A stretch of DNA of 62,408 nt, from contig JABANN010000144.1 in NCBI GenBank assembly GCA_013115125.1, forward strand, positions 1-62,408. Reading direction: 5' to 3'. This stretch comes from Perkinsus olseni. Its lineage: Eukaryota. Positions 9,656 to 10,640 of this stretch are shown piece by piece. The translations under genes were made by a program, and so were the position numbers. The notes under the pieces were generated by a model that was not told where the DNA came from, did not search any database, and was given only the letters and a program-made list of their open reading frames with translations. The first letter of the stretch is position 1, and each line of letters begins with the position of its first letter.

Positions 9656-10640
9656 TCATGATGATTGCATGACGTTTACCAACCTGAGCAACACAAGCTA
9701 GACGGCTCGACGCAGCTTAGAAAAGAGGCGACTCAACGTCGGCATAGCTCGCACCCGAAAGGTCCCGGGTTCGAATCCCAGCGACGACATTTTCAAAGAA
9801 GTCATATAGGAGACGCACCAGTCTAATCCTTCTTTGATACCATCTCCTCGAACTGCACTGGCTTGATATATCGCCCATTGACGAGATCTGACAAGACGCC
9901 ACAAATTCTCCCGACAGCTTGCCACGACCGATTCTCAGGTACCTAATTTGGGTGAGTCCCAGTCCCTCCGAGACTTCAACGCTGCTCATGGCATCCGGTA
10001 AATCCTGTTTGTTCGCGAAGACTAGTAAAGCAACACCCTGGAGCTCTTCCTCATCTAACAAGTTGTTTAACTCTCGCCGTGCATCTGGCAGTCGATCACG
10101 ATCTGAAAAAACACATGAGCAAGATAGAGTCTCCTGTCTCATCTACCCACCAGCCGAGTCCACAACGTAGACAATGCCATTGGTGTTCGGGTAGTAACAT
10201 CTCCAATAGGGCCGTATGCTGCTCTGACCACCTGCCAAGGGGACTGCTCCTCCTGCGGGAGTTGCTGCCATTTTACCCAAGTCCCAGACCTGCAGCTTCA
10301 CGTTCTTCACTTGTATCGTCTCCACGTTGAAGCCAATGGTGGGAATAGTTTGCACGATATCATCAACTTGCAACCGGTCTGAAGAAAATGCAAAGAAGCA
10401 TCCCCCGGCCCATCACCGTCGAGAAATCGGGCCTCCCAAAGCTGGCAATTGGGTCGCCAGAGGGTCGATCGAGGCACCCCTGGTTGAGACAATCTCAAGG
10501 ACGATAGACTGCGACAGCGCGACCAGAGAGGGCTTACACAGTATCGTTGTCTTCCCTGCATTATCGAGGCCTAGGATGAGTATCCGAACCTCCTTCGTGC
10601 CAAAAAGCCGACCAAAGAGTGAGGAGAAGAGGACACCCAT
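9656..10640 (-). CDS. ARL1: ADP-ribosylation factor-like small GTPase ARL1, spliced
   Basis: [87 protein letters not shown]. Confidence 0.92.
9706..9793 (+). pseudogene. Degenerate tRNA-like element inside the last ARL1 intron (antisense to the gene)
   Basis: CT-CGC-AC CCGAA AGGTC CCGGG TTCGAAT CCCAG CGACGAC A TTTT; an A-box-like CAGCTTAG lies upstream. Confidence 0.7.

Follow-up and report, generated by a model that had tools for sequence, protein, structure and literature searches.

Does the last intron of ARL1 in Perkinsus olseni harbour the remains of a tRNA gene, and if so, do those remains do anything for the gene in which they lie? ARL1 is encoded on the minus strand of contig JABANN010000144.1, the 62,408 nucleotides of which constitute the stretch analysed here (the window). 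The original prediction held that the intron is largely a decayed tRNA gene, antisense to ARL1 and followed by a Pol III terminator, and every sequence string quoted in its support is found at the position claimed. Transfer RNA pseudogenes and truncated tRNA-gene relics are known in eukaryotic genomes. The features discussed below are collected in Table 1.

Table 1. Features of ARL1 and of the tRNA-like element in its last intron (window positions).
Feature	Positions	Strand	Evidence
ARL1 coding region, six exons, 180 aa	9656..10640	-	Pfam Arf; five splice joints; match to P. chesapeaki ARL1
ARL1 last (fifth) intron, 135 nt, GT..AG, phase 2, in the Trp codon of EGLDW	9684..9818	-	RNA joints
Alternative 5' end: acceptor strand (5/7 pairs) and D-arm-like hairpin lacking T8 and G18-G19	9706..9729	+	14/17 features, post hoc
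Preferred 5' end: acceptor strand (5/7 pairs) and TAGCTC	9738..9750	+	Covariance-model parse; p 0.02 post hoc
Possible anticodon loop and 3' stem strand	9748..9759	+	Loop background fraction 0.019; stem partner p 0.11
tRNA variable loop AGGTC (positions 44-48)	9760..9764	+	Background fraction 1.1e-3
T arm, 4/5 stem pairs (C50.A64 mismatch), perfect B box at 9768-9778	9765..9781	+	Weight matrix, covariance model
Acceptor 3' strand and discriminator A73, no CCA after	9782..9789	+	Weight matrix, covariance model
TTTT right after position 73, interpreted as the copy of a Pol III terminator	9790..9793	+	25 bases from 5' splice site

We compared the contigs of four runs, out of 20 listed, over positions 9300-10800 of the window; of these, run X9 is RNA on record and run X7 is RNA by guess only, and X8 and X13 represent divergent isolates. 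All five ARL1 introns are skipped in contigs of both RNA-type runs, which come from two studies. At the last joint 135 bases are missing from both, as expected for a GT..AG intron at 9684-9818 with the ends GTGCGT...GCTCAG (9818..9684, minus strand), and the predicted intron is thus spliced at its exact boundaries in two of two RNA-type runs. Other introns of the gene include ones of 45, 48 and 55 nt. The joined frame has the C-terminus WLVNVMQSS, which resembles that of P. chesapeaki ARL1. The public P. olseni ARL1 model (P0121, 174 aa) differs at its C-terminus from the RNA-supported protein (9656-9960, minus strand); it looks mis-spliced, because the RNA joints support 180 residues ending like P. 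chesapeaki ARL1. In the RNA contigs of X9 and X7 the last intron itself is uncovered, apart from one 35-base piece that comes from another locus. These libraries were not made for short RNA, and their contigs are therefore silent on Pol III transcription of the intron.

The firm tRNA-derived part of the intron extends from 9760 to 9793, antisense to ARL1. Its resemblance to tRNA does not stop at the 11-bp B box: when scored with a weight matrix of class I tRNA genes (113 genes, drawn from a set of 121 viral loci that had been chosen by their A box alone and not by 3' sequence), the similarity of the element outside the B box exceeds that of all but 1.8e-4 of window positions. In 27 of 38 viral loci the exact 20-mer of variable loop and T arm falls within a called tRNA gene, with eight tRNA types represented, and the same variable loop occurs in the one intact tRNA gene of the window, tRNA-Ile(TAT). 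The tRNA ancestry of 9760-9793 is shown by these comparisons, and at this level the predicted antisense copy of a tRNA gene, now decayed, is borne out. The T run begins at the very base that follows position 73 (background 0.003 per position), and is free of changes among the substitutions listed; divergent isolates change at 9794. Its register is that of a Pol III terminator, as predicted, but a working Pol III unit is not supported, there being no A box above chance. To say that the intron is largely tRNA remnant goes too far: the firm part accounts for 34 of its 135 bases (25%), and the proportion becomes 41% with the shorter of two parses of the 5' half and 65% only with the longer.

With a covariance model trained on 48 of the viral class I tRNA genes, the element reached 22.4 bits (a roughly calibrated E of 2.6e-5 for the window) and the intact tRNA 72.2 bits, so that a test of the tRNAscan-SE or Infernal type, proposed as a check, places the element well below the intact gene. 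It was rightly singled out as the most complete member of its set in the window, as the next relic scored 18.0 bits; three more scored 12.2, 11.2 and 10.5, the best match that is not a relic scored 9.5, and of the two remaining relics one scored 6.4 bits and the other was absent among the matches listed. Neither ARAGORN nor Rfam called a tRNA at the element. Rfam returned no tRNA match with E up to 10 from either 301 or 97 bases, and in both searches one match of the same clan was hidden behind a 6-bit tmRNA match; there was also a weak match to mascRNA (E 1.8-5.6). A blastn search of phages gave only T-arm matches of 19-33 bases to many tRNA types, with E 0.08 or worse. Folding energy revealed no special fold relative to shuffles (z -0.5 to -1.4), a result that carries little weight because the intact tRNA of the window (z -1.04) is equally indistinct. 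With its stems broken and no convincing A box, the element is not a working tRNA.

The suggestion that the 3' half is of tRNA-Val type was not upheld. In ungapped comparison over positions 32-73 with a reference set that is viral and pattern-selected rather than from Perkinsus, the closest gene fetched was Ile(GAT), with 32/42 matches against 29/42 for the best Val, and the loop reads CGC, not NAC. The same Ile(GAT) gene has the C50.A64 mismatch of the element. A C/D snoRNA-like match at 9653-9713 (plus strand; 15.3 bits against a threshold of 60) was rejected, since what look like its boxes are the last ARL1 codons and the 3' splice site read in reverse complement. A scan for bacterial promoters and terminators found nothing, and is irrelevant here.

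Upstream of 9760, support for a tRNA 5' half is marginal once corrected, because the tests of both parses were devised after the sequence had been seen and on the best of seven relics. The TCGG/CCGA pairing put forward as an anticodon-like stem has p 0.11. The best A box has two mismatches, and is equalled or beaten in 1811 of 3000 random stretches. The parse that starts at 9706 has 14 of 17 features (p 0.004-0.02, post hoc) and requires 12 extra bases. That starting at 9738, originally offered as an alternative without a D arm, has 11 of 13 (p 0.02, also post hoc) and is favoured by the covariance model; two of its seven acceptor pairs and one of its five T-stem pairs are broken. The two parses are mutually incompatible. 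In the shorter one the A box is cut off, and its start lies only 23 bases before the B box, compared with 44 in the intact tRNA. The possible anticodon loop overlaps the TAGCTC of this parse, and the two features are therefore not independent. The stretch 9738-9789 equals a 73-nt tRNA minus positions 14-34, that is, minus 21 bases between two CTC repeats; the length match fits by construction, since the CT of the supposed anticodon loop belongs to TAGCTC. A stem-loop with a CAA loop, seen by eye at 9727-9743, was discarded, as a D arm would not fit beside it. In none of the other six relics of the window is the 5' half above chance.

Dada DNA transposons of P. marinus insert at TAGCTC, nucleotides 8-13 of tRNA (PMC3706591, PMC8869645). 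The shorter parse breaks off directly past this hexamer, the proposed target duplication. Transposon sequence is not evident here, excision with deletion is conjectural, and chance alone places TAGCTC in 1.8% of comparable stretches.

How old is the intron that holds the element? A pattern consisting of the exon end followed by GTR matched at least 116 metagenome loci. Within the flank present, the ARL1 motif is found in 56 of these and an Arl2 motif in 10, which we take to be intronless matches; the ARF1 motif is found in none, and the remaining 50 have no motif. A GT..AG intron followed by a short last exon is found in 42 of the 56 ARL1-motif loci (median intron 54.5 bases), and no B box in any of the 42. 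One such locus (L007) is 100% identical to a protein of Agrocybe, an agaric fungus. A further locus (L001), from among the 50 without a motif, shares 20 of 21 residues with a Gonium protein and has a 146-base intron before the matching last exon. Judged by these introns, which are predicted and were retrieved with a pattern able to find presence only, the position and phase of the last intron are common to fungal and green-lineage ARL1 and far older than Perkinsus. Intron maps of four ARF groups have been published (PMC8358228); we found no ARL1 map in the portion of that work available to us. The element ends 25 bases from the 5' splice site and starts 22-54 bases from the 3' splice site. The position is ancient, and the element includes neither splice site; the tRNA piece therefore entered an intron that already existed.

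The element has company. Seven strict B boxes occur in the window, against a mean of 0.2 (maximum 1) in 60 Markov simulations. One belongs to the intact tRNA-Ile(TAT) at 32902-32974, the sole ARAGORN or Rfam tRNA call in the window; the other six, together with one variant, make up the relics, which have unrelated flanks. Position 73 is A in six of the seven (p 0.001) and CCA follows in none, from which we infer that the relics derive from gene or precursor sequence and not from mature tRNA. Acceptor positions 66-72 differ across all seven. C50.A64 is present in four of the seven, with different acceptor strands, and that pair is broken in only 1 of 113 real tRNAs. A second relic, at 50529, also has TTTT from the first base after position 73. 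The relic at 52094 (plus strand) has A at position 54; A54 is a variant in some natural tRNAs, so the B box of this relic may not be decayed.

Further contigs match 9755/9760-9790/9794 at 80% or more, at least 7 in X8 and at least 11 in X13, with flanks unlike each other (agreement among pooled contigs 0.5-0.8); by depth bins, none of the X8 contigs reaches 5' of 9755 at 80%. They may be relics or intact tRNA genes. One other locus, represented by X8 and X7 contigs on 9755-9789, matches from position 39 on; in its loose ends, of uncertain register, an A-box-like word stands just upstream, and position 73 is followed directly by CCA. A literature search, the coverage of which leaves out most subscription journals, returned no description of such relics in Perkinsus.

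Several relics of the window lie in predicted introns. A predicted 47-nt intron of Sec61-alpha (31071-31025, minus strand) has as its 5' splice site the GTAGGT of the variable-loop region of a sense relic, and in a predicted 72-nt intron at 50560-50489 (minus strand), also with a sense relic, the T run after position 73 doubles as the pyrimidine tract. Four relics are antisense in predicted introns, at 35332-35398 in a plus-strand gene and at 52107-52061, 53249-53198 or -53106, and about 61040-60978 in minus-strand genes. In these four the tRNA 3' end is at or near the 5' splice site; the introns come from conceptual translation only, and several boundaries are ambiguous. The relic at 61018 is also inside a 331-codon open frame.

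Are the element and the other relics under selection? The orthologous contig of X8 has 13 substitutions in 591 bases; none of the 11 listed falls in 9684-9793, and the two others could lie in the T arm. At the local rate such an absence has p 0.21 over the 71 unambiguous bases and p 0.09 over 110 bases. We do not read selection into this low variation, since reduced divergence is common to all of the compared sequence below about 10020, relative to the exons above that point. X8 and X13 differ from the window by about 2% there and by 5-7% in those exons, a step that suggests a recombination or conversion tract within ARL1. When sites were chosen by their flanks, one criterion returned five relics with an intact core and none with one mismatch (null 0.3), and a second returned four intact and one with one mismatch (null 0.6). 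Sites with two mismatches numbered 7, compared with 2.5 expected, under the first, and 5, compared with 3.6, under the second. Pooled, one of six relic cores is damaged, with p 0.03-0.18 for divergences of 20-10%. The preserved cores and the recurrent C50.A64 lean towards a DNA motif that is kept, without establishing it; a shared master copy would account for them as well.

We believe that the element is probably an inert tRNA pseudogene, discarded whenever the old intron around it is spliced. It would have begun as a class I tRNA gene that was copied, with its T-run terminator and without CCA, either by DNA duplication or by reverse transcription of a precursor tRNA, the copy coming to rest antisense in the pre-existing ARL1 intron. 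With over 500 copies in five tRNA types in P. marinus (PMC3706591), the source would have been ample. The D arm and anticodon arm would then have been lost or scrambled, most simply through a 21-base deletion between the two CTC repeats and a few substitutions. The relic, which provides neither splice site, leaves with the intron at each splicing. Like eukaryotic tRNA pseudogenes at large, the element has tRNA sequence in register to position 73, broken stems, a sub-threshold covariance score and a non-coding location; unlike them, the relics of the window are dense, concentrated in very short introns and skewed towards the 3' third, the B box being intact. Some observations sit uneasily with inertness. 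Neutral decay predicts more damage than is seen in the flank-selected relics, five of six of which have intact cores; C50.A64 in four of seven relics is poorly explained by independent decay; and no X8 substitution is among those listed in the intron up to 9793. No target-site duplication was found either: for four candidate 5' ends the longest shared word was 4-5 bases (p 0.29-0.78), although an old duplication could itself have decayed.

Some of these observations bear on a reading with the same origin, in which the B box is now selected as a binding site for TFIIIC without being transcribed, in the manner of ETC sites; thousands of such intronic sites would be expected to shape chromatin or to slow Pol II. 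The ETC and COC sites of yeasts and mammals offer a precedent, as they too consist of a lone consensus B box with no usable A box (PMC3395662). Perfect B boxes within decayed flanks point the same way, and a shared C50.A64 would indicate a DNA motif, not an RNA stem. ETC sites differ in having a 10-base 3' extension, in being intergenic in yeast and in being defined by TFIIIC binding and cross-species conservation (PMC3395662), whereas the site described here is intronic and plainly tRNA-derived. The relics are also few (p 0.03-0.18), a shared master copy would explain C50.A64 and reduce the divergence estimate, and our literature search found no paper joining TFIIIC and Perkinsus. We consider selection for TFIIIC binding unlikely, though the next most likely of the readings. 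Its widest form is similarly doubtful: Perkinsus would have turned tRNA-gene 3' ends into TFIIIC sites in introns throughout its genome, at a density, if the window is typical, of about one per 9-10 kb. Such copies would settle in old and new introns alike and lose both D arm and anticodon arm, while variable loop and B box persist as a DNA motif, the ARL1 copy being a transitional one that still shows the whole gene. It is very improbable that the element is a still-transcribed Pol III unit that damps ARL1 through collision with Pol II. Antisense orientation, a perfect B box and a T run in register would suit such a unit, and an antisense Pol III-type element, a MIR, does lie in intron 1 of a Pol II gene, mammalian Polr3e; the MIR, however, requires its intact A and B boxes, is conserved mammal-wide and is occupied by Pol III (PMC5358760). 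Here the best A box is at chance level, the candidate at 9706 is without T8 and G18-G19, and the spacing in the shorter parse is 23 instead of 44.

The element could also be one copy of a tRNA-derived SINE or repeat family, mobilized by the LINE-type element of the window. This non-LTR retroelement lies at about 23150-27019 (minus strand), and its endonuclease, reverse transcriptase and zf-RVT domains occupy separate frames; a route for retro-copying thus exists in the window, one that the ARL1 element may or may not have taken. The X8 and X13 contigs and the shared C50.A64 are what a family would leave. The contigs may, however, include intact tRNA genes. SINEs retain a 5' tRNA head with A and B boxes; here no common body or tail continues past the tRNA 3' end, the flanks are dissimilar, no two relics agree over positions 66-72 and a target-site duplication was not found; we therefore regard a SINE family as highly unlikely. 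Still less credible is a working non-canonical tRNA, be it an armless mini-tRNA (9738-9789) or half of a tRNA that is split or permuted. The covariance model's preference for the acceptor and T-arm parse would favour it, as would the weak mascRNA match; the broken acceptor and T-stem pairs, the want of an anticodon stem in that parse and of an A box, the TTTT after position 73 with no 5' half downstream, and the ordinary intact tRNA gene in the same window all argue against it. There is next to no likelihood that the tRNA copy made the intron, in the manner of Introner elements. Other introns do begin inside a relic, for instance the predicted Sec61-alpha intron, and removal of 9706-9793 would leave 47 bases, a length like those of the 45-, 48- and 55-nt ARL1 introns. 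The relics resemble Introners in being repeated sequences in introns of unrelated genes, here in a dinoflagellate relative, but Introners create new positions and supply splice sites (PMC11282704); the ARL1 intron has the same position and phase in fungal and green-lineage genes, and the element contains neither splice site. The main text of one Introner preprint (10.1101/2020.10.14.339549) mentions neither tRNA nor Perkinsus.

Taken alone, then, the ARL1 element is an ordinary pseudogene. What it adds is a spliced, old intron containing the most complete relic of the window, and this relic suggests how short ones arise: that it represents an early stage of decay towards a B-box-only remnant, as originally proposed, is plausible. 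It also serves as a control, showing that an intron dating back to the split between fungi, green plants and alveolates can still receive a relic. Because this relic sits in an old intron, the presence of a relic within an intron is no evidence of intron making. If the B boxes were under selection, Perkinsus would have an unusually dense system of intronic TFIIIC sites next to the dinoflagellates. Dinoflagellate chromatin is aberrant.

Two further observations concern the window at large. The intact tRNA-Ile(TAT) has no TTTT within about 80 bases downstream, and a run of four Ts may therefore not be the sole terminator used here. Genes duplicated in tandem occur at 6200-8900, 19800-22600 and 38800-44600, and comprise elongases, aspartyl proteases and a pair of long frames, of 737 and 846 codons, without a Pfam match.
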